A stretch of 64,000 bases of DNA from Candidatus Aminicenantaceae bacterium. Its GTDB lineage: Bacteria > Acidobacteriota > Aminicenantia > Aminicenantales > Aminicenantaceae. The notes beneath the pieces were generated by a model. The model saw only the letters and a program-made list of their open reading frames with translations, was not told the DNA's origin and ran no database searches. The translations under genes and the position numbers were made by a program. Below, piece after piece: positions 7,236 through 20,676 of this stretch. Location: NCBI GenBank assembly GCA_041862375.1, contig JBGVTE010000141.1:6465-70464 (forward strand), written 5' to 3'. Each line of letters begins with the position of its first letter. The first letter of the stretch is position 1.

Positions 7236-8729
7236 ATGCTTGATCACTCAGAAGCTACATATGATGAAAGTAAAGCTGTCAGCATAAAAGCAAGGTACAA
7301 GAATCTTGCTAAACTCGGTGAAGAAATACTTGTACGATTTTCATCAGTAATAAAAACTGCTCAGATTTTCGAGCAAAATAACAATACCTTCATTCGGCAG
7401 ATTGGCCTTTTTTTCAACCGTATTCAGAATGCATTAGCGAATGAGAAGGAAGCTCTCTTTCAATTTAAAAAAAATATACTCTTTTTTAACTATTATCGCG
7501 TGAAATTTGATTTTTCTACTTACGATAGCTTTAAGTTTTTAGCAGATGCATTCAGAGAAAGAGAGATAGGATTATTAAATTTCAGCCTTGGCCTGCAGGA
7601 GGAGGAACTGAAAGATTTTATCCTTCTTTTTAATGATACAGAAACAAAAAAAGAAAACCCTTTTGAAGATTTTAGGAGAAAGTTAGCTGCTTCAGGAATT
7701 TCGCATATCACTATTGAAAAAATGCATCCATCTGAAATACTCATTGAAGAATCAATAGAGGAACAGAAGAAATTTGCTAAGAAGGTCTTTTTTAAGAGCA
7801 TTACTCATTTACAGGAAATAATCCAAAGAGAGAGACAGAGAAAAAGAATCAAAGTTAAGACTACACAAAGATTGATGCAAACCATCATCGATCTCATAAT
7901 CCAGAATGAATCTATTATGGTTGGATTGACAAATCTGAAAAACCACAATGAATATACTCTCAATCATTCTGTCAATGTCTGTTTACTTTCCCTTTGTTTG
8001 GGGAGAAGATTAGGTCTTGATAAAAGGGAACTGCGGGATCTAGGCATTTCTGCCTTTTTTCATGATATAGGAAAACTAGAAGTCCCCGAAGAGATACTTA
8101 ATAAACCAGGTAAATTAAACGATAAAGAGAGAGAAGAGGTCGAAAAGCATCCATACCAAGGAGCAGTCAAGCTCACGAGCTTAGAAGATATGAATTTGAT
8201 CCCTGTAAAGGCTTTATGTGTTGCCATGGAGCATCATATTGATGCTGACCTGAGTGGTTATCCAAAATATTGGAAAAAAAATTACATGGATATCTTCAGC
8301 AAAATTGTTGAAATAAGTGATTTTTTTGATGCGATTACGACCGAGAGGCCCTATCGAAAAAAAGTTATGAGCAGAGAAGAAGCTCTAAAACTGATGTTGA
8401 AAGACTTTAGTTATAAATTCGATCCTCTCATTCTGAAAGTATTTGCCAACATGCTAGGCATTTATCCTATTGGCTCTTTAGTAGCCTTAAACAGTGGGGA
8501 GGTTGGCATTGTCACTGAATTGAATCCAAATAAGGAATTCATGGCAAGACCCAGAGTCAAACTGATCTCTGATGAGACTGGTAATAAAATAGACGGAGAA
8601 ATTGTTGACTTGGCGGAAAAGGATTCTGCTACCAACACATTTAAAAGAACGATATTAAAGTCCTTGGATCCTAAACAATATAATATCAAAATCTCAGATT
8701 ACTTCTTGGTTGAAGGAAGCTATCTATAA
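7236..8729 (+). CDS. HD-GYP domain protein (putative c-di-GMP phosphodiesterase)
   Basis: 'FFHDIGK' followed by 'HHIDADLSGYP' and 'DAITTERPYRK', the HD and GYP signatures. Confidence 0.85.
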   Translation: MLDHSEATYDESKAVSIKARYKNLAKLGEEILVRFSSVIKTAQIFEQNNNTFIRQIGLFFNRIQNALANEKEALFQFKKNILFFNYYRVKFDFSTYDSFKFLADAFREREIGLLNFSLGLQEEELKDFILLFNDTETKKENPFEDFRRKLAASGISHITIEKMHPSEILIEESIEEQKKFAKKVFFKSITHLQEIIQRERQRKRIKVKTTQRLMQTIIDLIIQNESIMVGLTNLKNHNEYTLNHSVNVCLLSLCLGRRLGLDKRELRDLGISAFFHDIGKLEVPEEILNKPGKLNDKEREEVEKHPYQGAVKLTSLEDMNLIPVKALCVAMEHHIDADLSGYPKYWKKNYMDIFSKIVEISDFFDAITTERPYRKKVMSREEALKLMLKDFSYKFDPLILKVFANMLGIYPIGSLVALNSGEVGIVTELNPNKEFMARPRVKLISDETGNKIDGEIVDLAEKDSATNTFKRTILKSLDPKQYNIKISDYFLVEGSYL

Positions 8730-8733
8730 GCTG

Positions 8734-10401
8734 CTATCTCAGGGTTCCTTCGTAGTGAGCTGTCAATTGCCGTTTTTTTACATCTTCTGGTGTGTAAGAA
8801 GGTAGAAGAACTGGTGCAATTCGGTCTGTTTTGATTTTTGCTTTTTTCAGTTCATCCTCGTAATTTTGGATATGCTCTAGTGTTAGTTTGCTGAGTTTTA
8901 CAGATTTTGCATATTCAGCAGCATGTTTCCCGGCTCGGCGTCCAAACACGTTATAGTCAAGGACAGAATTTCCCATTAGTCGATTTCGTCCGTGCACTCC
9001 GCCTGAAGCTTCTCCTGCTACAAAGAGACCTGGAATGTTAGTTTCACATTTTTCGTTTATCTCGATTCCGCCATTCTGATAATGAAGAGAGGGATAGACG
9101 AGCATGGGTTCTTTAGTGATGTCAATACCGTAGCGGATAAATTGGCGATGCATTGCCGGAAATTGTTTGTTTATATAACCTTCTCCCTGAAGCATTTCAA
9201 TAAGGGGTGAGTCGAGCCAAACACCGAGGCGCCTACTCGGAGTTTCAATGCCATTTTTTCTTTCTAAGCATTCCCTTATGAATGCAGAACTCTCTACATC
9301 TCTTGGTTCACGCGGAAAGACAAAAAGCTCTCCAAGTTTATTGAGAGGCTGTCCACCTGCTCCCCTTATTTTTTCGGTGATTAGAAAACCTGCTATCTGT
9401 TCCGGAAAAGCTGCACCTGTGGGATGGTATTGCACAGAATCCATGTAAAGAAGCTGTGCTCCTGCTCGATAGGCCATGACAAGGCCGTCTCCCGTGGCAC
9501 CGTAGTGGTTTGTTGTATCAAATCCTCTTATATGAAGCCTGCCGTAGCCTCCTGTCGCAATAATCGTAGCCTTGGCTTTGACAGTAAAGTATTCTTCTGT
9601 TTCGAGGTTGTAGAGAATACCTCCTGAACACTGGCCTTTACTGTCCATTATTAATTCGACTATGGGCATGAATTCTAGAATTGTAATTTTATCGGAGTGA
9701 TTTCTTACTTCATCCATCAGAGTCCGCATGATAACTGCACCTGTATAATCGCGGCAGGAGTGCATCCTTTTCCTTGAAGTTCCGCCTCCGTGGAGAACCT
9801 GTAAGGAACCGTCTTCCAACTTGTCCCAAACTACGCCTAGGTCTTCGAGCCATTTGACTACTTCAGGCCCGTCTTCAGTAAGGGCACGAACGAGCTCAGG
9901 CTTGTTATCAAAATGACCTCCTCCGATTGCATCTAAGTAGTGACGAGTAGGGGAGTCTTGAGCAGTAACAGCTGCTTGCATTCCTCCTTGAGACATCATG
10001 GAATTGGCATCACCCAATCGAAGTTTTGTGGAAATAATTGACTTAGCTCCGTTTTGCATGGCAATGATAGCAGCTGCACATCCTGCACCTCCTCCTCCAA
10101 TGATTAAAATATCTGTTTCATAGTCAGTGCGCGCTAAATCAAATAACTCAGGCTTGATTCTTGAATGAGACTCTAACATATCCGCTACTTCTGTGGTAAC
10201 TAATTCCCCTTTATCTGGACCTATTCTTATTTTGCGTCTTGAATCAGGTTTATAGTCAGGATGAAACTTATTAAGAACTTCCTCTCTTTCTTCGGCACTC
10301 ATCGGAGGGAAAACAGGTTTTCCTGACGTTGCGAGTTCAAACCTCTTATTACGGGTTTGGGCGACTTTTTTCAGTGATTCATTCATGTAATCTGGATACA
10401 T
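8734..10401 (-). CDS. soluble fumarate reductase / succinate dehydrogenase flavoprotein-like FAD protein (FrdA/NadB superfamily)
   Basis: Rossmann motif 'ILIIGGGGAGCAAA', then 'YHPTG', 'ITEKIRGAGG' and 'HGRNRLMGNS'. There is no His at the covalent-FAD position ('ANSMMSQGG'). About 95 aa of N-terminal extension precede the FAD fold. Confidence 0.75.
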   Translation of the reverse strand: MYPDYMNESLKKVAQTRNKRFELATSGKPVFPPMSAEEREEVLNKFHPDYKPDSRRKIRIGPDKGELVTTEVADMLESHSRIKPELFDLARTDYETDILIIGGGGAGCAAAIIAMQNGAKSIISTKLRLGDANSMMSQGGMQAAVTAQDSPTRHYLDAIGGGHFDNKPELVRALTEDGPEVVKWLEDLGVVWDKLEDGSLQVLHGGGTSRKRMHSCRDYTGAVIMRTLMDEVRNHSDKITILEFMPIVELIMDSKGQCSGGILYNLETEEYFTVKAKATIIATGGYGRLHIRGFDTTNHYGATGDGLVMAYRAGAQLLYMDSVQYHPTGAAFPEQIAGFLITEKIRGAGGQPLNKLGELFVFPREPRDVESSAFIRECLERKNGIETPSRRLGVWLDSPLIEMLQGEGYINKQFPAMHRQFIRYGIDITKEPMLVYPSLHYQNGGIEINEKCETNIPGLFVAGEASGGVHGRNRLMGNSVLDYNVFGRRAGKHAAEYAKSVKLSKLTLEHIQNYEDELKKAKIKTDRIAPVLLPSYTPEDVKKRQLTAHYEGTLR

Positions 10402-10469: not shown

Positions 10470-11213
10470 TTATTCCACGTCTCTATCGTAGTATTTCTTT
10501 TTTAATTCTTCTTTTTTCATATTAATGAATTCTTTGTATTCTTTATTATATTCATGCTTTTTTATTTCTTTTATTCTCTTTTTTAGTTGCTTGCTTTCCT
10601 TAGATAAATATTTCCCGAAGAGTCTTCTTGCGAGTAGACCGACATTATACTGTACTATTTCCGCCGGACACCTAATGGCACACATTCCGCAGCTTAGGCA
10701 GTCAAAGGAAAGATCCATGACTTTTTCGATGTCTCCCCGCATAGCTGCTTGGATGTAGTCCATAACTTCCAAATCTTGAGGACAGGCCTTAGTACAGGTG
10801 TTGCAAGCAACACATCGGAAAACTTCAGGATAAAGTTCTTGGAATGTTGAGACATTTGGGTCAAGTTTGTTAATATCATAAATAGGTTTTTGTGCAGGGA
10901 TGGATGGTAACTGAGAAAGCCACATTCCTTCTTGAACGAGAGTTGTACAGGCAAGCCCAGTATAAATTTTATAATCATTAGGAAGTCGGTATACCGTAGC
11001 GCAAGCACCACAGAAACCTTCGCGGCACCCTGCACCTCTTTTTATTTGATAACCAGAGTACTCGATAGCTCCCATGATTGTTGATTCAGCTGGCACTTTA
11101 TGAGCTTTACCCATGATGAATACGGTTGCCATTTCTTTTTTTTGGTCTGCTTTTGTGGATTTAACTTTAGTTTTTTTTATGGACTTCCTTTGAACTGCTT
11201 TCTTTGTTGCCAT
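10470..11213 (-). CDS. FrdB/SdhB-like iron-sulfur subunit (2Fe-2S plus two Cys clusters) with Lys-rich tails
   Basis: 'CREGFCGACA' (2Fe-2S), 'CVACNTCTKACP' and 'CLSCGMCAIRCP'. AAAGGAG Shine-Dalgarno precedes ATG 11213. Confidence 0.7.
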   Translation of the reverse strand: MATKKAVQRKSIKKTKVKSTKADQKKEMATVFIMGKAHKVPAESTIMGAIEYSGYQIKRGAGCREGFCGACATVYRLPNDYKIYTGLACTTLVQEGMWLSQLPSIPAQKPIYDINKLDPNVSTFQELYPEVFRCVACNTCTKACPQDLEVMDYIQAAMRGDIEKVMDLSFDCLSCGMCAIRCPAEIVQYNVGLLARRLFGKYLSKESKQLKKRIKEIKKHEYNKEYKEFINMKKEELKKKYYDRDVE

Positions 11214-11228
11214 CGTTAATATCTCCTT

Positions 11229-12059
11229 TTAATATTCTTGCGGAAGTTCTTTAAGCTCGGCCCAGGAATAGACAGGACCATCTTTACAAACATAGTGTAA
11301 ACCTATGTTGCATCTTCCACATTTCCCAATGCCACATTTCATTTTATTCTCAACAGTTGTGTATATTTGTTCATCTTCGAAACCAAGAGCTTTTAGATTC
11401 TGGATGACGAATTTGATCATGATGGGAGGACCACAAGTGACAGTGATGGCATTTTTTGGAGAAGGTTTTTTATCCAGAACATTCAGGGGAACAAATCCCA
11501 CGAATTCTTCCCAGCCCGGCTCCTCAACATCCACGGAAAGATGGACCGTAATTTTTTTCCTGAGTTCTTCCAGTTCCTCTTTAAAGACGAGATCTTTAGA
11601 TGTCCGGGCTCCGTAAATGAGCATGAGGTCTCTGTAGTCTTCTTTTTTACCCAAAGCTGTGTTAAGCACTGACCAGATTGGAGCTAAACCTATACCCCCG
11701 CCGATAAAGATGAGGTTTTTTTCCTTCCAATCTTCAATGGGAAAACCATTACCGTAAGGACCTCTAATTCCTATGATATCTCCGTTTTGCATTTCATGAA
11801 GTGCAGAGGTAACTCTACCCATCTTCAAGATACTGAATTGAAGATAATCCTTTATAAGAGGGGAAGATGAGATGGAGATCATTGATTCTCCCTTGCCGAA
11901 AACAGAGAGCATAGCACACTGTCCACAGTGAAAGGAAAAATCGTTGTCTTTAAGGAACTTTATCCTGAAAGTCTTGATGGGCCTTAAGCCGCCCACTTCT
12001 TCCTTTGTTTCGATTATTTTTGCCAGTCTTGGAATATAAGTATTATGGTCCATTATCAC
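11229..12059 (-). CDS. FlxA-like FAD/NAD(P)-binding 2Fe-2S oxidoreductase (PyrK/HydG/AsrB family)
   Basis: 'IGGGIGLAPI' nucleotide-binding motif and C-terminal 'CGIGKCGRCN' cluster. Overlaps the upstream gene by 17 nt. Confidence 0.75.
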   Translation of the reverse strand: MIMDHNTYIPRLAKIIETKEEVGGLRPIKTFRIKFLKDNDFSFHCGQCAMLSVFGKGESMISISSSPLIKDYLQFSILKMGRVTSALHEMQNGDIIGIRGPYGNGFPIEDWKEKNLIFIGGGIGLAPIWSVLNTALGKKEDYRDLMLIYGARTSKDLVFKEELEELRKKITVHLSVDVEEPGWEEFVGFVPLNVLDKKPSPKNAITVTCGPPIMIKFVIQNLKALGFEDEQIYTTVENKMKCGIGKCGRCNIGLHYVCKDGPVYSWAELKELPQEY

Positions 12060-13083
12060 TCACCTTACTGAGGACTTCAATGATGTCTATTCCAACAGGA
12101 CATTTTGAAACGCATCTTCCACAGCCAGTACACTGATAACTTTTGTATCGTTCGACAAAATACTGAAATTTATGCAGGATTCTCTGGCGTAGGCGGGAGG
12201 ACCTATCTGGCCTGGGATTATGCCCAGAAGAGTGCATAGTAAAATCAGGAAACTGACAGTTGTCCCACGTTCTCACTCTCTTCCCTTTAAGTGGGGAGGA
12301 AGTGGTAACTTCGTCATTGATATCAAAGCAATGACATGTGGGACATAGATATGTGCATATACCACATCGAATACAGCTCAGAGATTCTTCATTCCAGAAA
12401 GGCACCTCAAACATCTCCTTGAGTTTAGGAGGTATCTTTTTTATTCCAGTGATTTGTCTTTTGATTTTTTTCTCTGAATCAGCTTTTATTTTATCTGCGT
12501 CTTTCTTATCTTTTTCTTTAGGCGTCTGGAATATTTCTTTGGCTGCATTTATGAGTTGATTGCCTTTTTGTGTCAGTGACTCTACGATGTATTTATCTCC
12601 TAAATCAGTCATCAAGATGTCTAGCCCATCTTTGGAATGAGGAGAACCATCGACTGAAAGACAGAAGCAGTTGGGAGATGGGGGAGAGCTACAGGTAAGT
12701 CCAACAAGAATTGTTGAGTTTCTTCTCTTAAAGTAATAAAGATCTTCAAAGTCACCTCCAAAAACTTTATCCATCAGAGTAAGAGCTTTTGCATCGCACG
12801 GTCTCACGCCAAAGATTACAGCAGGTCTTTCCTCAGGGAGAACTTCTGTGACCTGAATGCCTTCTTCGTTTGAAGAGTTAAACTCGAGAAGGATTTCTCT
12901 CTGGGGAAAAATAATTTTCTTAAGAGAGAGGACTGTAGTAAGATAATCCAGGTCTATGCTTTGAAGATTATCAGTGAGCTCATAGTTCCAGAGATCATCC
13001 TTATTCACAGGCGCATATATCGCATAAGTTGTAAGTTTTTTTACCCAGTGAGGGAAGGATATTTTTGGTAGTATTTTTTCCAT
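12043..13083 (-). CDS. FlxB-like 4Fe-4S protein (sulfhydrogenase beta / AsrA family); start trimmed to ATG 13083
   Basis: 'CIRCGICTYLCPTCHC' and 'CTGCGRCVSKCP'. The track ORF runs to 13197, but that extension overlaps the upstream gene by 110 nt. 'MEKILPK' starts 4 nt after the upstream stop. Confidence 0.7.
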   Translation of the reverse strand: MEKILPKISFPHWVKKLTTYAIYAPVNKDDLWNYELTDNLQSIDLDYLTTVLSLKKIIFPQREILLEFNSSNEEGIQVTEVLPEERPAVIFGVRPCDAKALTLMDKVFGGDFEDLYYFKRRNSTILVGLTCSSPPSPNCFCLSVDGSPHSKDGLDILMTDLGDKYIVESLTQKGNQLINAAKEIFQTPKEKDKKDADKIKADSEKKIKRQITGIKKIPPKLKEMFEVPFWNEESLSCIRCGICTYLCPTCHCFDINDEVTTSSPLKGKRVRTWDNCQFPDFTMHSSGHNPRPDRSSRLRQRILHKFQYFVERYKSYQCTGCGRCVSKCPVGIDIIEVLSKVSDNGP

Positions 13084-13087
13084 TGTT

Positions 13088-14119
13088 TTACCTGATAAAA
13101 TCTTCTGGATCTTCATCCTTAAAACATGAAACAAGAGAGGGCTGATCAGAGTCAAAGCCAGCCTCATAGTTAAAGAGCTCTTTGGCTTCCTTTTCAAGTT
13201 TTTTATTCAAGAGCCTGATTGGTATATCAAGGGGACATACCCTTTCACATTCCCCACAATCAATACAGCGACCTGCGAGATGAATAGCTCTGACAAAGTG
13301 ATACACAAAATTTTCTGAAAAAGCAGGGGATTTCTCCACCCATTTTATTTTTTGTGCTTTTTCATCCGCAGTAGTATCAGCTGTAACAGCAAAATTTATA
13401 GTGTCAATTACGCATTCATCACAATAGCACATAGGACAAACAGACCGGCAGGCATAACAGCGAATGCATTTATCAAGCTGTTTTTTCCAGAAAGCCCACT
13501 TTTCCTCTCTAGGTATTGCTTCGATTTTCTCAATGGATTTAAAAGGATCATCCAATTTTTTACTGACCTTTTCTCCAAGAAAGACATCATACACAACTGG
13601 ATAATTAGCCTTGCATTCAAGACATCTTTCAGCGAGCATCTCTTTAACGGGAATTTCAATTTTAGCTTCTTCAGTAGTAATGACAAAATTATCATTTTTA
13701 CTAAACTCTATGTTTTTGGCTTCTTTGCCTTTCAATTTTTTATTGAGTTTTTTCTCATCTAGAACTCCAGCGTGTTCGCAGGATACGCCGATGAGAAAAA
13801 CATCATCTCGGTTTATGAATTTCTCTTGCAGCAAGACATTAATTGCTCGGCTGTCACAACCTTTTACAATGAGTCCCACAGGTCTTTCATCAGGTTTCTT
13901 TTCTCGAGCTTTGCTTCTTTTTTCATCAACGAGATAACGGCTGAGATTGTGAATGCAGGAAGGATCCCAGATTAATTTCTCAACATCCTCAGCACTTCTT
14001 ATAAAAGCCGGAATTGGAAGGGAACTGTTTGTCCCTCGCTTATACCCGATGACGTATTTTACTTTTCCTTCCTCAAGAATTTTTTTTACTTCTTTTTTTA
14101 GGTCTTCGAGGCTTACCAT
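13088..14119 (-). CDS. FlxC-like 4Fe-4S cluster protein
   Basis: 'CIRCYACRSVCPMCYC' and 'CIDCGECERVCP'. Its start overlaps the mvhD-like stop by 1 nt (TAATG). Confidence 0.65.
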   Translation of the reverse strand: MVSLEDLKKEVKKILEEGKVKYVIGYKRGTNSSLPIPAFIRSAEDVEKLIWDPSCIHNLSRYLVDEKRSKAREKKPDERPVGLIVKGCDSRAINVLLQEKFINRDDVFLIGVSCEHAGVLDEKKLNKKLKGKEAKNIEFSKNDNFVITTEEAKIEIPVKEMLAERCLECKANYPVVYDVFLGEKVSKKLDDPFKSIEKIEAIPREEKWAFWKKQLDKCIRCYACRSVCPMCYCDECVIDTINFAVTADTTADEKAQKIKWVEKSPAFSENFVYHFVRAIHLAGRCIDCGECERVCPLDIPIRLLNKKLEKEAKELFNYEAGFDSDQPSLVSCFKDEDPEDFIR

Positions 14120-14541
14120 TATTGCTCTCTCCTCAGCTTTGTTTGAGGACCAAGTGACTTGAGTTCTTTTACAAAGTCTTTGATTATTTGAGTATATTTT
14201 GTACCTTCAGCTGCCGATATCCAAGACATCTGGAAACGCTGTGGTTCGAGACCGATATATTCTAGAAGTTTTTTGACAAATGCTATCCGTCGTCGGGCAT
14301 AATAATTACCTTTTATATAGTGGCAGTCACCTGGATGACAGCCTGATACTAAGACTCCGTCTGCTCCTTTGTTAAAGGCATCCAGTATGTATAAGGGGGA
14401 GACACTTCCTGAGCACATAACAGTAATGGGGACAACATTAGATGGATACTCCATGCGGGACACACCTGCAAGATCACTCCCAGCTGAAGAGCACCATTTG
14501 CAGAGAAACGCGACTAATTTTGGTTCAAACTCATCTCCCAT
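14119..14541 (-). CDS. MvhD/FlxD-like protein (methyl-viologen-reducing hydrogenase delta subunit family)
   Basis: 'VAFLCKWCSSAG' and 'VSGCHPGDCHY'. 140 aa, 2 nt downstream of hdrA. Confidence 0.85.
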   Translation of the reverse strand: MGDEFEPKLVAFLCKWCSSAGSDLAGVSRMEYPSNVVPITVMCSGSVSPLYILDAFNKGADGVLVSGCHPGDCHYIKGNYYARRRIAFVKKLLEYIGLEPQRFQMSWISAAEGTKYTQIIKDFVKELKSLGPQTKLRREQ

Positions 14542-14543
14542 TA

Positions 14544-16490
14544 TCAGCCTCCAAGTGATGCCCTTATCATTTCATGAATTTGTAACGGAGTCAGGTTTAT
14601 GACTTTTATAGCTGCTCTTAAGCACGTAGCTGAGCAGGTTCCACATCCTTCACACAGGACTTCATTCACTTCGACTTTTCCTTCTTTTAGTGAAAGAGCG
14701 TCATAAGGACAAACATGAACACACATTCCACAACCTGTACAGAGGTTCATTTCAACTTTAGCTACAGTGGGAGCATGATAAAGTCTATCTTGGGATAGTA
14801 TAGAAATAGCTTTAGCAGCTGCACCGCTTGCTTGCGCTACAGCTTCAGGAATATCTTTAGGAGCTTGAGCTGCTCCTGCTAGGAACAATCCAGATGTTAC
14901 ACTTTCAACAGGTCTAAGCTTAGGATGTGCTTCTGAAAGAAAGCCATCCTTATCCATGGCAATTTTAAGTTTCTTAGCCAGCTCTTCTGCTCCCCTGGAT
15001 GGACGCATAGCAGTAGCCAGTACAACCATATCAGCATTGATCTCGATATCTTTTCCGATGAGTGTGTCAACTCCCCAGACTTTGATCTTTCCCTTATCAT
15101 CGAAAATTTTTGAAACTTTACCACGAAGGTAAAGAACTCCGTCCTCTTCTACTGCTCTCTGAACAAATTCCTCGTAGCCCTTTCCACCTGATCTGATATC
15201 AATATAGAAGATATACGCTTGGCCATCAGGGACATGATGTTTATAGAGCATAGCATGTTTGGCTGTGTACATGCAGCATATTTTTGAGCAGTAGGCGCAG
15301 TGAAGTTCGGGATCGCGGGAACCGACGCACTGGATGAAGACAACCTCTTTTGGCTCCTTATGATCTGAAGGCCTGAGTATCTTTCCCATTGTCGGGCCAG
15401 AGGCAGAACAGAGTCTCTCAAACTGGAGACCATCGAGGACATCTGAATATTTTCCATATCCATACTCAGCCATCATCTTTTTATCATAGAGGTCATATCC
15501 AGTAGCAACTATTATTGCTCCTACATCTTCCTCGACGATTTCTGGTTTCATATCATAATCAATGGCTTCTGGTTCACAGACATCTGCGCATTTCCCGCAG
15601 GCAATAGGGAGTAAGCCAGGACACCCTTTTATATCAAGTGTATACGTTGCTGGAATAGCTTGGGGGAAAGGAATATAAATGGCCCGCCGTCCTGTTAAGC
15701 CAATATCAAATTCGTTAGGTACTACAACAGGGCAGACTTTGGTGCATTCATCACAGAGAGTACATTTGTCTGGGTAAACATACGTGGGGTGTTTTAGAAT
15801 TTTGACTTTAAAATTTCCTACATAACCAGAGACCTCTTGGACTTCACTGTAAGTTAAGAGTTTGATTTGAGGGTGTTTTGATACTTCCACCATTTTTGGC
15901 GTGAGAATACACTGGGAACAATCGAGTGTAGGGAAGGTTTCAGATAGCTGGATCATGTGGCCTCCTATAGAAGGAGACCTTTCTACCAAGATTACTTCAA
16001 AGCCACTGTTGGCTAAGTCTAATGCAGCTTGGATGCCTGCGATTCCGCCACCGATAACCAAGGCTCTCCGGGTTACTGGAATGCTTATTGGATCCAAAGA
16101 TTCATTCCTTCGAACTCTTTTAACAGCACTTTTTGTAATTTTTATTGCTTTCTCTGTTGCTTTTTCAATATCTTTATGGACCCAACTGCATTGTTCACGG
16201 ATATTAGCGATCTCGCATTGAAAAAGATTAATCCCAGCTGATTTGGAAGCGTTCCTGAAGGTTGTTTCATGGAGGGTAGGGGAGCAACAGGCAACAACCA
16301 CACTATCCAGCTTTTTTTCATTTATGGCATCTATGATAAGGTTCTGACCTGGATCAGAACATACATAAACGTAATCTTCAGAATGGATGACTCCTGGATA
16401 TCTAGATAGCTCTTCAGAGACACGCTTGACATCCACAGTTCCTGCAATGTTTATGCCGCAGTGGCATATAAAAACTCCTGTCCGTTTCAT
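14544..16490 (-). CDS. hdrA: heterodisulfide reductase subunit A-like flavoprotein
   Basis: N-terminal 'GVFICHCGINIAG', 'VIGGGIAGIQAALDLA', and C-terminal ferredoxin clusters 'CTGCGMCVHVCP' and 'CEGCGTCSATC'. Confidence 0.9.
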   Translation of the reverse strand: MKRTGVFICHCGINIAGTVDVKRVSEELSRYPGVIHSEDYVYVCSDPGQNLIIDAINEKKLDSVVVACCSPTLHETTFRNASKSAGINLFQCEIANIREQCSWVHKDIEKATEKAIKITKSAVKRVRRNESLDPISIPVTRRALVIGGGIAGIQAALDLANSGFEVILVERSPSIGGHMIQLSETFPTLDCSQCILTPKMVEVSKHPQIKLLTYSEVQEVSGYVGNFKVKILKHPTYVYPDKCTLCDECTKVCPVVVPNEFDIGLTGRRAIYIPFPQAIPATYTLDIKGCPGLLPIACGKCADVCEPEAIDYDMKPEIVEEDVGAIIVATGYDLYDKKMMAEYGYGKYSDVLDGLQFERLCSASGPTMGKILRPSDHKEPKEVVFIQCVGSRDPELHCAYCSKICCMYTAKHAMLYKHHVPDGQAYIFYIDIRSGGKGYEEFVQRAVEEDGVLYLRGKVSKIFDDKGKIKVWGVDTLIGKDIEINADMVVLATAMRPSRGAEELAKKLKIAMDKDGFLSEAHPKLRPVESVTSGLFLAGAAQAPKDIPEAVAQASGAAAKAISILSQDRLYHAPTVAKVEMNLCTGCGMCVHVCPYDALSLKEGKVEVNEVLCEGCGTCSATCLRAAIKVINLTPLQIHEMIRASLGG

Positions 16491-17059
16491 TTTTTCCCCT
16501 TTTTCTCTTCAGATGAAATTTTCTTGCCGTATTCATACCCTTTATCAAATGCTCGTATGTTAAGGTCGAGAAATCTTCCAGGAACTAATCCAGGGAGCGC
16601 TTTTTTTATAGCTTCTGGGGAAACGATTTTAGTAACAGCAGAGAAAAATCCTAGCATGACGAGGTTTGCTATGATTCGATTCCCTAGCTCTTCTGCAAAC
16701 CGTGTGGATGGAATAGCATACATTTTAATCTTCCCTCGAGGAGGCTTGGCCCTAACTAAATCTTTGTCGATGATGAGGATTCCATTGTCCTTCAATTCTG
16801 GCTCGTATTTATCATAGGCTTCTTGGGACATGGAAACGAGAATTTCTGGGATTGTGATATAGGGGTAGAGAACTCTGTCATCAGAAACAACGAGTTGGCT
16901 GCTACAGGCGCTTCCTCGTGCCTCAGGACCAAAACTCTGGGTCATCGTGGCTTGTTTATTATCAAAGAGGGCAAGGGCCTTTCCTGTGATAAGGCCACAC
17001 CGGATAATCCCTTGGCCGCCAAAGCCAGAAAATCTAATCTCAGCCATTGTTTTCTCCAT
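16487..17059 (-). CDS. korC: 2-oxoacid:ferredoxin oxidoreductase gamma subunit
   Basis: 'FSGFGGQGI'. 190 aa. 4-nt overlap with hdrA and 20-nt overlap with the beta subunit. Substrate is not determinable from sequence. Confidence 0.8.
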   Translation of the reverse strand: MEKTMAEIRFSGFGGQGIIRCGLITGKALALFDNKQATMTQSFGPEARGSACSSQLVVSDDRVLYPYITIPEILVSMSQEAYDKYEPELKDNGILIIDKDLVRAKPPRGKIKMYAIPSTRFAEELGNRIIANLVMLGFFSAVTKIVSPEAIKKALPGLVPGRFLDLNIRAFDKGYEYGKKISSEEKKGKK

Positions 17060-17912
17060 AAGGTTGGTATTTATCTCCCAGTACTTTGGCGAGATGAGTA
17101 TTCATGCAATCCAAGAAAGTAGGTTTATCTTTTTCTACAAACTTTCCAACGATGAGTTTTCCTTGGTAACTTATATCAAGGGTTCTGGTGTCTGCTCCGT
17201 GCTGGATTTCAGATTTTTCATAGTAATATTTTAAAAGGTTCAGTCCATCACCTAGCCGATTCCTTCGGGCATAGAGAGTTACACAGGGAGTTATGACTTC
17301 AATGAAAGAGAAGCCCTTCCTTGCAAGAGCTTCTTGAATTGATTTAGTTACTCTTCTGAGATGAAGTGCAGTCCAGCGAGCTACATACGTTGCACCACTG
17401 GCTTCTGCTAAATAAGGAAGGTTGAAGGGATATTCAAAATTTCCATAAGGAGCAGTGGAGGCATTTGCGTCAATCGGAGTTGTAGCTGCAACTTGTCCGC
17501 CTGTCATGGCATAGTTAAAGTTATTCACACAGATAATTATGAGATCCATATTACGCCTTGCTGCATGAATAAAATGGTTACCTCCAATTCCTGCAATATC
17601 TCCATCACCGCTGAAGACGACTACTTTTAATTCAGGATTTGCCAATTTTAATCCAGTAGCAACAGGAATAGCCCGGCCATGGGTAGTGTGAATGGAATCC
17701 AGTTTAACGTACCCGGCAACCCTTCCAGTGCACCCTATTCCAGATAATATGGCAACTTTATCCAGGTCTAATTCGCTTTTACGCAGTGCTTCTGCAAATG
17801 AAGTAACAACAGTTCCTATTCCACAGCCAGGACACCAGATATGAGGTATCCTGTCCATTCTCAGGAAGCTTTCAATAGGGTTTTTTTCTTCGAGAAGATC
17901 TTCTTTCTTCAT
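17040..17912 (-). CDS. korB: 2-oxoacid:ferredoxin oxidoreductase beta (TPP-binding) subunit
   Basis: 'WCPGCGIG' and 'FSGDGDIAGIGGNH' TPP motif. Confidence 0.88.
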   Translation of the reverse strand: MKKEDLLEEKNPIESFLRMDRIPHIWCPGCGIGTVVTSFAEALRKSELDLDKVAILSGIGCTGRVAGYVKLDSIHTTHGRAIPVATGLKLANPELKVVVFSGDGDIAGIGGNHFIHAARRNMDLIIICVNNFNYAMTGGQVAATTPIDANASTAPYGNFEYPFNLPYLAEASGATYVARWTALHLRRVTKSIQEALARKGFSFIEVITPCVTLYARRNRLGDGLNLLKYYYEKSEIQHGADTRTLDISYQGKLIVGKFVEKDKPTFLDCMNTHLAKVLGDKYQPYGENNG

Positions 17913-19075
17913 TTTGAGGCCTCCTTGATTGCATTGAATATATCATCTGGATTATGGACCCAGCCGCCACAGTGAGGTACGGGGATAGCAGGAGCTCGGC
18001 CTGCAGCGCTTCTTTCAACCTCTAAGACAACCTGGCCGTAATTTATCTCTGGGACGACAAAAGCCTTCACTTTTTTTGACAGTTCATGTATCCTTTTTTC
18101 AGGGAAAGGCCAGACAGTGATAAGTCTGATTGTTCCAACTTTCATGCCAGCTTTTCTTGCTTTCTGGACTGCTCTTACGGCTACTCGTGATGTTATTCCG
18201 TAGGAAATGACGATAATCTCAGCAGTATCTGTCTCTTCTTCTTCAAGTTCAATAATTTTATCTGCTTGCATCGTTATTTTATCAACCAGATGGCGGACAC
18301 AAACATCTTGGAATTCAGCATTAATAGCCGGGTAGCCTCGTTCATCATGGGTTAATCCTGTGACATGGAAGTGATATCCATCTCCAACCTTGACCATAAA
18401 GGGAACCATATCTTTATCAGGCTTGAAAGGAAGGTATTTATCCTTTGGACCTTTGTACCACTTTCTCTCAACCAGCTCAATCTCTTCTGCTTGAGGGATA
18501 ACAACTTTCTCGTGCATGTGCCCCACACACTCATCTGCCATGACAAAAGCTGGAATCCGGTAAATCTCAGATAGATTGAAGGCTTTTATAGTAAGATCAA
18601 AGCATTCCTGAGGAGAATCGGGTGAGAGGGCGATGATTTCATAGTCTCCATGTGATCCCCATTTTACCTGCATCATGTCCTGCTGTCCTGTTAATGTTGG
18701 AAGTCCTGTTGATGGGCCTCCTCTTTGGACATTGGCAATAACAAGAGGAGTTTCTAACATGCAAGCTAATCCTATGTTCTCCATCATTAAAGAAAAACCA
18801 GGCCCAGATGTTACAGTCATAGCTTTCTTCCCCCCCCAGGAGGCTCCTATTAAAGCTGCAATTGAAGCGAGTTCGTCTTCCATCTGGATGAAGACGCCTC
18901 CTACGGTGGGTATCCTCTCAGAAAATCTTTCAGCTGTCTCGGTAGAGGGAGTAATGGGATAGCCAGCAAAAAATCGGCAGCCAGCCGCAAGAGCCCCTTC
19001 AGCAATAGCATAGTCTCCGTCAAGATAGTGGGCTCCCGTTAAAACTCCTTTAGGGTCTGCTTTCACCTTTTTCAC
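17909..19075 (-). CDS. korA: 2-oxoacid:ferredoxin oxidoreductase alpha subunit
   Basis: '[24 protein letters not shown]'. 388 aa. Confidence 0.88.
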
Positions 19076-19331
19076 CTTCTTCCTCCTCTTTCTCTTTTTT
19101 TAGAGTGACAAATATGGCAAATTCAGGACAAATTGTCTCGCAGAGTTGGCAGTAGAGGCACTCCTCCTCATCCTTTACTCGAGGAGGATGATAACCTTTT
19201 ATGTTAAATTCTTCAGACAACTCAAGAACATCTTTTGGACAATATTCTACGCAAAATGCACAACCCTTGCATCTATCTTTGTTAATATGTATTTTGCCCC
19301 TTTTGGCTTTTAAATCGCCAAAATAAACCAT
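19050..19331 (-). CDS. korD: 2-oxoacid:ferredoxin oxidoreductase delta subunit (2x[4Fe-4S] ferredoxin)
   Basis: '[12 protein letters not shown]' and '[12 protein letters not shown]'. 93 aa, directly upstream of korA. Confidence 0.8.
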
Positions 19332-19338
19332 TTGTTCC

Positions 19339-20217
19339 TCAAATCAATCCTTTTTCTTTTAAAATCGGCCTTGGGTCAACATAATGAAGGTCAAATCTTA
19401 GGTTTTTTTCGGAACAATCCAAGGCAATAGCCATAACCTGAGTAAAATAAAGGATAGGAATGTTCTTAAAGTCTGGATATTTCTGTACAGTCTCTTTTTG
19501 GCGTTGGTCCAGGTTGAAGGCACAAAGAGGGCAACTGACAATCACAACCTCAGCGCCCTGGCTTTGGGCTGAGGAGAGGATGTGGTAAGTTCGATCAGCC
19601 ACAATTTCAGGTTTGTCAACCGTTTGATAAGCAGCACAGCACTCTGTCTTGTAAGGAAAATCAATCGGAATTGCACCCAGAGCAGCCATAAGATTTTCCA
19701 GGATTGTTGGATTTTCAACATCATCCAAGCCTATATCTTTGGGGCGTACGAGGAGACATCCGTAATAGCTAGCAATTTTTAGATTTTTTAATGGATTAAC
19801 TGCTTTTTCAGCGATGGTCTCAAACGTTATTTCATCTTTCAACAACTCCAAAAGGTGGAGCACTTTTACATCGCCTGCATAGTCGATTTTCTCTCTATAC
19901 ATAAACTTGTTTATCTTTTCCAAGCTTTCTGGATCTGCTTTAACCCGTTCGTTCACTCTTTTTAGAGTGTTGTAGCACATGGCGCAGAGAGTCATGACTC
20001 TGTCTGAGTTTGACTCTTTGACTCGAATGAGGTTACGGATGGGAGCCACGTGGTGAATCAAATCATCAGTGGCTAATGAAAAGACTGTCCCGCAACAGTT
20101 CCATCGTGGGAGCTCTTCGATCTCGACGCCGAGATGTTTTAAAGAACATAGAGTTGAGTCTTCAAAGTTTTTCGCATTGTTTTTCAGAGTGCAACCTGGA
20201 TAATAGCTTATTTTCAT
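19339..20217 (-). CDS. hdrB: heterodisulfide reductase subunit B-like protein (two CCG domains)
   Basis: 'YYPGC' with 'WNCCGT', and 'YYGC' with 'TECCAAY', in the duplicated CCG-domain arrangement. Confidence 0.85.
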
Positions 20218-20268: not shown

Positions 20269-20676
20269 TTAAGAGGTAAATTTTCTCATACTGCTGATCA
20301 TGGCTATGGGAGGAACACTACCTTTTTCTTCGCTTGTAAGCTTTTTAACTTTAAGATGATCCTCTCTCTTTCTCAGTAAGACTTGTCTTAGAGCTTCAAT
20401 TACTTCAGCTATGTTGATTCCTTTTGGACAACGGGCATTGCAGGTAAAACAGGAAGCACATATCCAAATAGACTTAGCCTGTAAAAGTTCATCCTTTAAT
20501 CCAAGCTGGGCGTAGCGGATTATTTGGTTGGGGAGGATATCCATCTCAGAAACTGCGGGACACCCAGCAGAGCACTTGCCGCACTGATAACAGGCGAGGA
20601 GATTCTGCCCGCTGATTTCTTCAACTTTAGTCACAAAGTTGTCTTTGATCTTTTTTCTGGAGATATTTATTCTCAT
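20269..20676 (-). CDS. hdrC: heterodisulfide reductase subunit C-like 4Fe-4S protein
   Basis: 'CYQCGKCSAGCP' and 'CASCFTCNARCP'. 135 aa, upstream of hdrB. Confidence 0.8.
   Translation of the reverse strand: MRINISRKKIKDNFVTKVEEISGQNLLACYQCGKCSAGCPAVSEMDILPNQIIRYAQLGLKDELLQAKSIWICASCFTCNARCPKGINIAEVIEALRQVLLRKREDHLKVKKLTSEEKGSVPPIAMISSMRKFTS

Follow-up and report, generated by a model that had tools for sequence, protein, structure and literature searches.

The window analysed here is a stretch of 64,000 nucleotides (nt) from a Candidatus Aminicenantaceae bacterium (contig JBGVTE010000141.1, positions 6,465 to 70,464 of the forward strand). On its minus strand, from 20676 to 8734, it carries a row of 13 genes in which the four subunits of a predicted 2-oxoacid:ferredoxin oxidoreductase (Kor) stand between hdrB and hdrA, two genes of a heterodisulfide reductase-like (Hdr) unit. 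The open reading frame (ORF) list and the sequence together give the order hdrC-hdrB-korD-korA-korB-korC-hdrA-mvhD(flxD)-flxC-flxB-flxA-frdB-frdA. Domains and families were assigned with Pfam and NCBIfam models, using the NCBIfam cut-offs, and the genes (lengths in amino acids, aa) are, from first to last:

20269..20676, minus strand: hdrC, first gene of the operon, 135 aa, 2x[4Fe-4S] ferredoxin-like, Pfam Fer4_8; top NCBIfam match TIGR03290 (HdrC), below cut-off
19339..20217, minus strand: hdrB, 292 aa, Pfam CCG twice
19050..19331, minus strand: korD, delta subunit, 93 aa, two CxxCxxCxxxCP motifs; top NCBIfam matches OGOR_delta and OorD, both below cut-off
17909..19075, minus strand: korA, alpha subunit, 388 aa, POR_N and PFOR_II, start GTG 19075 or GTG 19066; overlaps the 3' end of korD
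17040..17912, minus strand: korB, thiamine pyrophosphate (TPP)-binding beta subunit, 290 aa, TPP_enzyme_C; overlaps korA by 4 nt
16487..17059, minus strand: korC, gamma subunit, 190 aa, Pfam POR; NF006323 at 203 bits against a cut-off of 235
14544..16490, minus strand: hdrA, FAD/Fe-S subunit of bifurcating type, 648 aa, matching 5odc_A over its full length
14119..14541, minus strand: mvhD/flxD, 140 aa, Pfam FlpD (E 7.9e-53), 2 nt after hdrA
13088..14119, minus strand: flxC-like Fe-S protein, 343 aa, Pfam Fer4 families, in the position of flxC in the published order
12043..13083, minus strand: flxB-like, Pfam Fer4_22, HydB/AsrA-like; start probably ATG 13083
11229..12059, minus strand: flxA-like NAD(P)H-binding flavoprotein, 276 aa, NAD_binding_1 and DHODB_Fe-S_bind, HydG/AsrB-like
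10470..11213, minus strand: frdB-like Fe-S subunit, 247 aa, Pfam Fer4 families, an SdhB-type 2Fe-2S motif and two 4-Cys motifs
8734..10401, minus strand: frdA/tfrA-like flavoprotein, 555 aa, FAD_binding_2 (E 7e-77), last gene of the operon

The 13 genes share one strand, and each junction is either an overlap or a gap of at most 68 nt. An earlier note on this DNA had reported that korD begins 7 nt after hdrB and that korC overlaps the hdrA start in ATGA, and both statements are exact. The hdrB stop TGA (19341-19339) is followed by 7 nt (GGAACAA) and then by the korD ATG at 19331, with a Shine-Dalgarno-like GAGGA motif overlapping the hdrB stop, and the korC stop (16489-16487) shares ATGA with the hdrA ATG (16490-16488). 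The frames of korDABC (16487-19331) and of the flanking hdrB and hdrA are all intact. The position of korDABC between hdrB and hdrA is a real arrangement and goes beyond chance, since its junctions recur in 32 of the 41 genomes of the order and in four loci of a species-wide scan.

The relatives were obtained by a KorA search of 40 related genomes, from which about 15 kb around each match was retrieved, the genome of the window making 41 of the order. The genomes with the order hdrC-hdrB-korDABC-hdrA-mvhD comprise 23 of the 24 other genomes of the family as well as members of five further families. Around this core the other modules change: frdBA shifts between a downstream and an upstream position and flxCBA is present or absent, while the core order holds and MvhD is retained in every operon variant. 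Nine relatives (L032, L033, L035, L039, L042, L044, L045, L048 and L058) have a 10-gene form, hdrCB-korDABC-hdrA-mvhD-frdBA, which lacks flxCBA and was confirmed ORF by ORF in L058 (8374-17503). HdrA (73-78% identity) and MvhD (53-58%) are more diverged in this form, and the electron donor is not encoded in the operon; a full FlxC homologue is present elsewhere in two of the five Flx-less genomes tested, the other three giving weak partial FlxC matches only. In two relatives, L054 (G025, a single contig) and L055 (G038, 20 contigs), the cluster genes match as fragments, which suggests frameshift errors of assembly rather than gene decay.

Furthermore, one genome per species from 185,579 species was scanned with a KorA alignment as query and the 80 most similar loci were kept; as these were picked by their similarity to Hdr-linked Kor, their proportions are no census. 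The four loci with the embedded order belong to two further metagenome-assembled genomes (MAGs) of the window's type, a Gallionella MAG and a Rhodocyclaceae MAG. The last two copies share with the window 68-70% identity in KorA and HdrA and 58-61% in HdrB, and have frdA upstream as in the published cluster of tubeworm symbionts that is compared below; the flanks retrieved around them held no acl- or ccs-like genes. What the earlier note had seen in one genome, a Kor embedded in the hdr unit, is therefore tightly coupled, not confined to this genome and conserved over large distances. In a FastTree tree of KorA the embedded copies form one clade (local support 100, one change) with both proteobacterial rows inside it, and the other linkage types require several changes. 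These other types are varied. In other orders Kor directly adjoins hdrA or mvhD in about 19 further scan loci and lies within 2-4.5 kb of them in about 10, and at least five other arrangements bring Kor, HdrABC/MvhD and Frd together: L088, L094, L096 (Heimdallarchaeota), L114 (Planctomycetota) and L120 (Cloacimonadota). L134 (Bipolaricaulota) has hdrCB, frdBA and korA, with no hdrA or mvhD detected at that locus, and Thermoplasmata and Bathyarchaeia have Kor-HdrA/MvhD adjacency only.

The borders of the operon are marked by unrelated genes. Upstream of hdrC a gap of 141 nt separates it from a SpeE-like gene, which is part of a conserved SpeE-like/radical-SAM cluster, and downstream lies an HD-domain gene in convergent orientation, whose end at 8729 is 5 nt from the frdA stop. 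Between 8000 and 21500, scans for promoters and terminators found sites no commoner than in shuffled sequence (24 against 28.3 and 10 against 11.8, respectively) and so are uninformative on the transcript ends.

The korDABC genes are predicted to encode a four-subunit 2-oxoacid:ferredoxin oxidoreductase (OFOR) of the 2-oxoglutarate type. The subunit composition agrees with this: an alpha subunit with POR_N and PFOR_II, a TPP-binding beta, a POR gamma and a 2x[4Fe-4S] delta. KorA passes the generic 2-oxoacid:acceptor oxidoreductase alpha model NF006412 (563.5 bits, cut-off 411), and the top substrate-specific NCBIfam models are all of the 2-oxoglutarate type, with scores against cut-offs of 387.8/579 for alpha, 233.4/364 for beta and 66.5/125 for delta; the PorA/VorA models score far below these. 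The solved chains nearest to KorA are 1yd7, 8ys5 (2-oxoglutarate synthase alpha) and 6n2n (the Magnetococcus 2-oxoglutarate:ferredoxin oxidoreductase, OGOR), and the chains of pyruvate enzymes are far weaker (pyruvate:ferredoxin oxidoreductase, PFOR, 9bt4, E 9e-14). Three other OFOR loci are present elsewhere in the window's genome. It may also be noted that KorD proteins linked to hdrA or mvhD are extended at the N-terminus by a YFGDLK- or WRKPLD-type segment (window 19272-19331; loci L021-L136), and that in the stand-alone Kor operons of Terriglobales and Bryobacterales KorD begins about 12 residues ahead of the first Cys motif. This association of the extension with hdr linkage was noticed post hoc (84 concordant and 8 discordant loci) and reduces to 4-6 independent contrasts with p of at least 0.25, which is not significant, so that it is a lead only.

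The Hdr proteins resemble those of a bifurcating core. HdrA is collinear over its full length with the bifurcating HdrA of M. thermolithotrophicus (5odc_A, residues 3-643, E 5e-216), all its domains are present (FAD, N-terminal, inserted ferredoxin and C-terminal ferredoxin), and the inserted ferredoxin domain has Cys motifs (C243-C253, C290-C305) that do not vary among 26 orthologues. HdrB aligns over its full length with HdrB chain 7bkb_B (E 1.8e-41), and the ten Cys in its two CCG motifs all line up, the second motif reading CCA, not CCG; a search of a protein atlas with HdrB returned generic HdrB clusters only. Encoded with hdrABC is a complete FlxABCD set for NADH input, in the positions of the published flxDCBA order. 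The longest ORF of flxB starts at TTG 13197, and the NCBIfam matches to it begin only at residue 44. The genome has three further hdrA loci (G000 contigs C27, C102 and C126; G000 being the genome of the window), one with flxBA-like genes, two with mvhD and none with kor.

The last two genes resemble those of a fumarate reductase. The top NCBIfam match of FrdA is the TfrA (thiol:fumarate reductase) model at 355 bits against a cut-off of 718, and ahead of its FAD-binding GGGGAG motif it has an N-terminal extension of about 92 aa (window 10126-10401, minus strand) to which no family was matched in the searches made. In FrdB neither a CCG domain nor an SdhB equivalog match was found (translation, Pfam, NCBIfam), and in the TfrB model the C-terminal two thirds are matched by HdrC and HdrB, so that FrdB and HdrB resemble a split TfrB. 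Compared with TfrAB of Methanothermobacter (NF004900, NF004898), whose equivalog cut-offs none of the scores reaches, the Fe-S part (FrdB) and the CCG part (HdrB) are here separate genes at opposite ends of the operon. As the CCG domain fused in TfrB is lacking from FrdB, FrdAB alone has no obvious thiol-oxidising site. A DsrC-family protein of 110 aa with both redox Cys (CX10C at the C-terminus) is encoded outside the window (G000 contig C40:9391-9690) and is a possible thiol/disulfide carrier for HdrB.

Taken together, we consider it probable, with some reservation, that the 13-gene operon encodes a soluble flavin-based bifurcating module in which the electrons of NADH are split between fumarate reduction and the reductive synthesis of 2-oxoglutarate, as in the model of Rubin-Blum et al. 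2019. From the gene families, their order and their conservation, which are observed, we infer the following route. Electrons of NAD(P)H would enter by FlxABC and MvhD/FlxD and reach the FAD of HdrA. The high-potential electron would pass from HdrA by HdrC and HdrB to FrdAB, there reducing fumarate, with the step from HdrB to FrdAB made either by a thiol/disulfide carrier, such as the DsrC found in this genome, or directly by contact. The low-potential electron would leave by the inserted ferredoxin domain of HdrA for Kor, which would carboxylate succinyl-CoA reductively; this transfer would probably be made by docking of KorD, or otherwise by free ferredoxin. The predicted net reaction would be 2 NADH + fumarate + succinyl-CoA + CO2 -> 2 NAD+ + succinate + 2-oxoglutarate + CoA. 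In a reductive tricarboxylic acid (TCA) route fumarate reduction and 2-oxoglutarate synthesis would run at equal flux, which would suit a bifurcating enzyme. For the reductive TCA cycle it is a standing problem how anaerobes meet the cost of the very low-potential electrons that 2-oxoglutarate synthase requires, and if the proposed module is true, the energy of fumarate reduction, driving 2-oxoglutarate synthesis at equal flux, would cut the cost of carbon fixation or of glutamate synthesis.

The proposed exit of the low-potential electron was examined by modelling the complex of HdrA and KorD, each given as an alignment of 26 orthologues, along with three controls. The HdrA-KorD model scored 0.65 and the best of the 3 controls 0.00; that mark is reached by 58 of 80 solved complexes and by 2 of 110 mismatched pairs. 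The contact agreement of the runs was at least 90% and the partner pLDDT (per-residue confidence) at least 77. The modelled contacts join residues 254-269, 291-300 and 366-377 of HdrA with residues 1-10, 30-33 and 59-63 of KorD. The HdrA stretches are loops belonging to the two Cys motifs of its inserted ferredoxin domain; of the KorD stretches, 30-33 and 59-63 are the two cluster loops, and the N-terminal segment (1-10) is also in contact. The HdrA site is where the low-potential exit is reported to lie in the methanogen structures (Wagner et al. 2017; solved super-assemblies). The model supports, and does not show, a docking of KorD on the inserted ferredoxin domain of HdrA.

The earlier note had suggested a direct hand-over of electrons through KorD, and of this the docking itself has found computational support, the choice between KorD and free ferredoxin being one that the model does not make. 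The same note had pictured Kor plus Hdr, both of which are there, and had left out the Flx genes for NADH input and the FrdAB genes, which make it a three-enzyme module. A wider proposal goes one step further, namely that Kor, HdrABC-MvhD and FrdAB form one super-complex in which KorD is docked and no free ferredoxin takes part, and that such complexes, with exchangeable electron-input modules, are widespread across bacterial phyla and archaea (Heimdallarchaeota, perhaps Thermoplasmata and Bathyarchaeia). This we offer tentatively, as a possibility that falls somewhat short of an even chance.

Several observations weigh against the bifurcating module or its KorD-docked form and have to be counted. 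Every OGOR-specific NCBIfam model stays below its cut-off for the Kor subunits, and the generic 2-oxoacid alpha model is alone in being passed. Nine relatives have the operon without flxCBA. The KorA tree gives the embedded order a single origin, so that its conservation is partly inheritance. A search of the embedded KorD for a docking domain or an unusual tail found none; no domain is added to KorD, and the acidic tail that it conserves falls on the ribosome-binding site and start of korA. The pass of the docking model may reflect likeness to the solved Hdr-polyferredoxin complexes, any 2x[4Fe-4S] ferredoxin might dock likewise, the model not being specific for KorD over free ferredoxin, and the N-terminal part of KorD that makes contact in the model may lie buried within the Kor holoenzyme. 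Finally, no citrate synthase or citrate cleavage gene was found in the genome of the window, so that a complete reductive cycle in this genome is putative.

The alternative that survives best keeps the same enzymes and pathway and does without a Kor-Hdr complex. In that case the operon would serve co-regulation, free ferredoxin and a diffusible thiol carrier (DsrC or a small thiol) would connect the enzymes, and the gene order would be the inherited accident of one rearrangement. The single origin of the embedded order and the plain build of KorD both agree with it, as do the encoded DsrC with its CX10C pair and the intact disulfide-reducing site of HdrB; also, other phyla have kor next to the hdr unit or kilobases off, not inside it. 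An accident is, however, harder to reconcile with a core order held at 58-70% identity while the neighbouring modules shift, with translationally coupled junctions and with a docking model that beats its controls, and FrdB, having no TfrB-type CCG domain, leaves FrdAB alone with no obvious site to oxidise a diffusing thiol. On balance we regard this alternative as rather unlikely, though one to be taken seriously.

A second alternative reverses the direction. Flavin-based bifurcating enzymes are generally reversible, as is stated in the literature for hydrogenases, and the same module could work by confurcation in an oxidative TCA route, where electrons from 2-oxoglutarate (by Kor) and from succinate (by FrdAB) would be joined at the HdrA flavin and passed to NAD+, giving a quinone-free oxidation of succinate. 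Sequence alone cannot decide the direction of flux, and the citrate genes bear on it from both sides. A full-length citrate synthase is present in 38 of the 41 relatives, same genus included, and the published Aminicenantes genomes are described as fermentative heterotrophs, both of which suit the oxidative direction. Against it, a short citryl-CoA-lyase-like gene gives about 27 matches among the 41 genomes, and the same-genus genome G001 (L137:5649-8923) has a citryl-CoA synthetase-like pair (ATP-grasp_2 with Citrate_bind; CoA_binding with Ligase_CoA) together with a 259-aa citryl-CoA-lyase-like protein, in an operon that continues with aconitase-family genes and an Iso_dh-family (isocitrate/isopropylmalate dehydrogenase) gene; these point to citrate cleavage. 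Moreover, aclAB accompanies the homologous cluster of the literature, which is expressed together with reductive TCA cycle genes. In the genome of the window itself (G000, 93% complete) neither PF00285 nor PF16114, the families of citrate synthase and citrate cleavage, gave a match, and no acl, idh, pnt or rnf genes adjoin the operon in the window. The citryl-CoA operon of the G001 type was not found in G000 either; its flanking genes sit there on two contigs, C21 and C131, so that gene loss and an assembly gap are indistinguishable. The missing citrate synthase of G000 was considered as an argument against a TCA cycle and rejected, the gene being present in 38 of the 41 relatives, same genus included. 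From these gene contents a reductive TCA route in this lineage is plausible, and confurcation appears unlikely to us, though it is a live rival.

It is very unlikely, in our view, that the module is a 2-oxoglutarate:fumarate oxidoreductase, in which Kor would donate by KorD, HdrA and HdrCB to FrdAB and NADH would be dispensable. This would fit especially the variant without flxCBA, where nine relatives have no Flx input genes in the operon and three of the five tested have weak partial FlxC matches only elsewhere. Yet MvhD, the usual entry point of a third partner, is kept in every variant, a full FlxC exists elsewhere in two of those five genomes, the window has the complete Flx set, and a simple downhill transfer needs no bifurcating HdrA flavin. 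That the embedded Kor acts on pyruvate or another 2-oxoacid, so that the TCA link is wrong, agrees with the generic alpha model being alone above its cut-off and is likewise very unlikely in our view, given that the best specific alpha, beta and delta models are all for 2-oxoglutarate with PorA/VorA far lower, that 8ys5 and 6n2n are among the nearest chains as against 9bt4, that the three other OFOR loci could handle pyruvate and that a fumarate reductase stands in the same operon.

The bifurcating module has close precedents. The earlier note had taken it that the hdr genes of described clusters are contiguous, which is wrong, since this interrupted order has been published: Rubin-Blum et al. 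2019 (PMC6315080) gave for the Escarpia symbiont frdB, frdA, hdrC, hdrB, korD, korA, korB, korC, hdrA, flxD, flxC, flxB, flxA, aclB, aclA. They listed hdrC-hdrB-korDABC-hdrA-flxDCBA in tubeworm symbionts (Ca. Endoriftia and the Escarpia symbiont) and in Thioflavicoccus mobilis (Table S1 of PMC6315080), and proposed direct electron bifurcation to OGOR and fumarate reductase. The novelty that the note implied is therefore lost too, as both the order and the direct-shuttle hypothesis date from 2019 and were taken up again in 2024 and 2026: Mitchell et al. 2024 (PMC11636981) found the tubeworm symbiont cluster, intergenic regions included, co-expressed with genes of the reductive TCA cycle, and a 2026 survey repeated the same bifurcation model. 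With the same order and the same idea already published, the window represents a new host lineage and not a new system. The order from hdrC through flxA on one strand is identical to that of the tubeworm/Thioflavicoccus cluster, the three enzyme systems are the same, and the proteobacterial copies fall in the same KorA clade. The window differs from it in having frdBA after flxA and not before hdrC, in the lack of an adjacent aclBA, in its host, an uncultured sediment bacterium of another lineage, and in sister genera with the flxCBA-less form. No paper on Kor-Hdr linkage in this lineage or in other phyla was found, in searches that miss many subscription journals. What is added to the literature is this different uncultured sediment lineage as host, the sister variant without flxCBA, other Kor-Hdr-Frd gene orders across phyla including archaea, and a testable KorD-HdrA interface. 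Rubin-Blum et al. inferred that the gene set reached the Gammaproteobacteria by horizontal transfer from a distant clade (PMC6315080), and the window adds a second, deeply diverged host lineage, which is a candidate relative of whatever clade donated the proteobacterial cluster. With it come natural variants that keep or lack the NADH module, and a concrete site at which KorD may contact HdrA.

Other known systems share parts of the module. In the 'succinate operon' of Pseudoclostridium thermosuccinogenes (Koendjbiharie et al. 2020, PMC7282089) Flx-Hdr stands with a fumarate reductase, and NADH oxidation was proposed to be coupled to the reduction of fumarate and ferredoxin; this operon has no kor inside, its OGOR being encoded elsewhere and regarded as anabolic only. 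FlxABCD-HdrABC of Desulfovibrio vulgaris (Ramos et al. 2015, as cited in PMC6315080) has the same seven families, and a DsrC with both redox Cys is encoded by the window's genome. In that cited account the flx-hdr genes of Desulfovibrio are contiguous and linked to an alcohol dehydrogenase, whereas in the window the order is reversed with hdr first, kor is inserted and frdBA is appended. The nearest likeness to a direct connection is in the methanogen super-assemblies (M. hungatei 7BKB; Hdr-Vhu-Fwd of M. maripaludis, PMC13518236), where the low-potential branch of HdrA is wired to a CO2-fixing enzyme by 2x[4Fe-4S] ferredoxin-fold modules with no free ferredoxin. HdrA of the window is a full-length homologue of theirs, and KorD is modelled on its inserted ferredoxin domain. 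Here the partner would be the TPP enzyme Kor in place of formylmethanofuran dehydrogenase, and the connector the single-module KorD instead of a polyferredoxin, with fumarate as the probable high-potential acceptor in place of CoM-S-S-CoB. If this is true, a bifurcating Hdr core with a direct connection to a CO2-fixing enzyme would be known from a second case, one outside methanogenesis, and the module would be the TCA-route counterpart of the Hdr-Fwd super-assembly.

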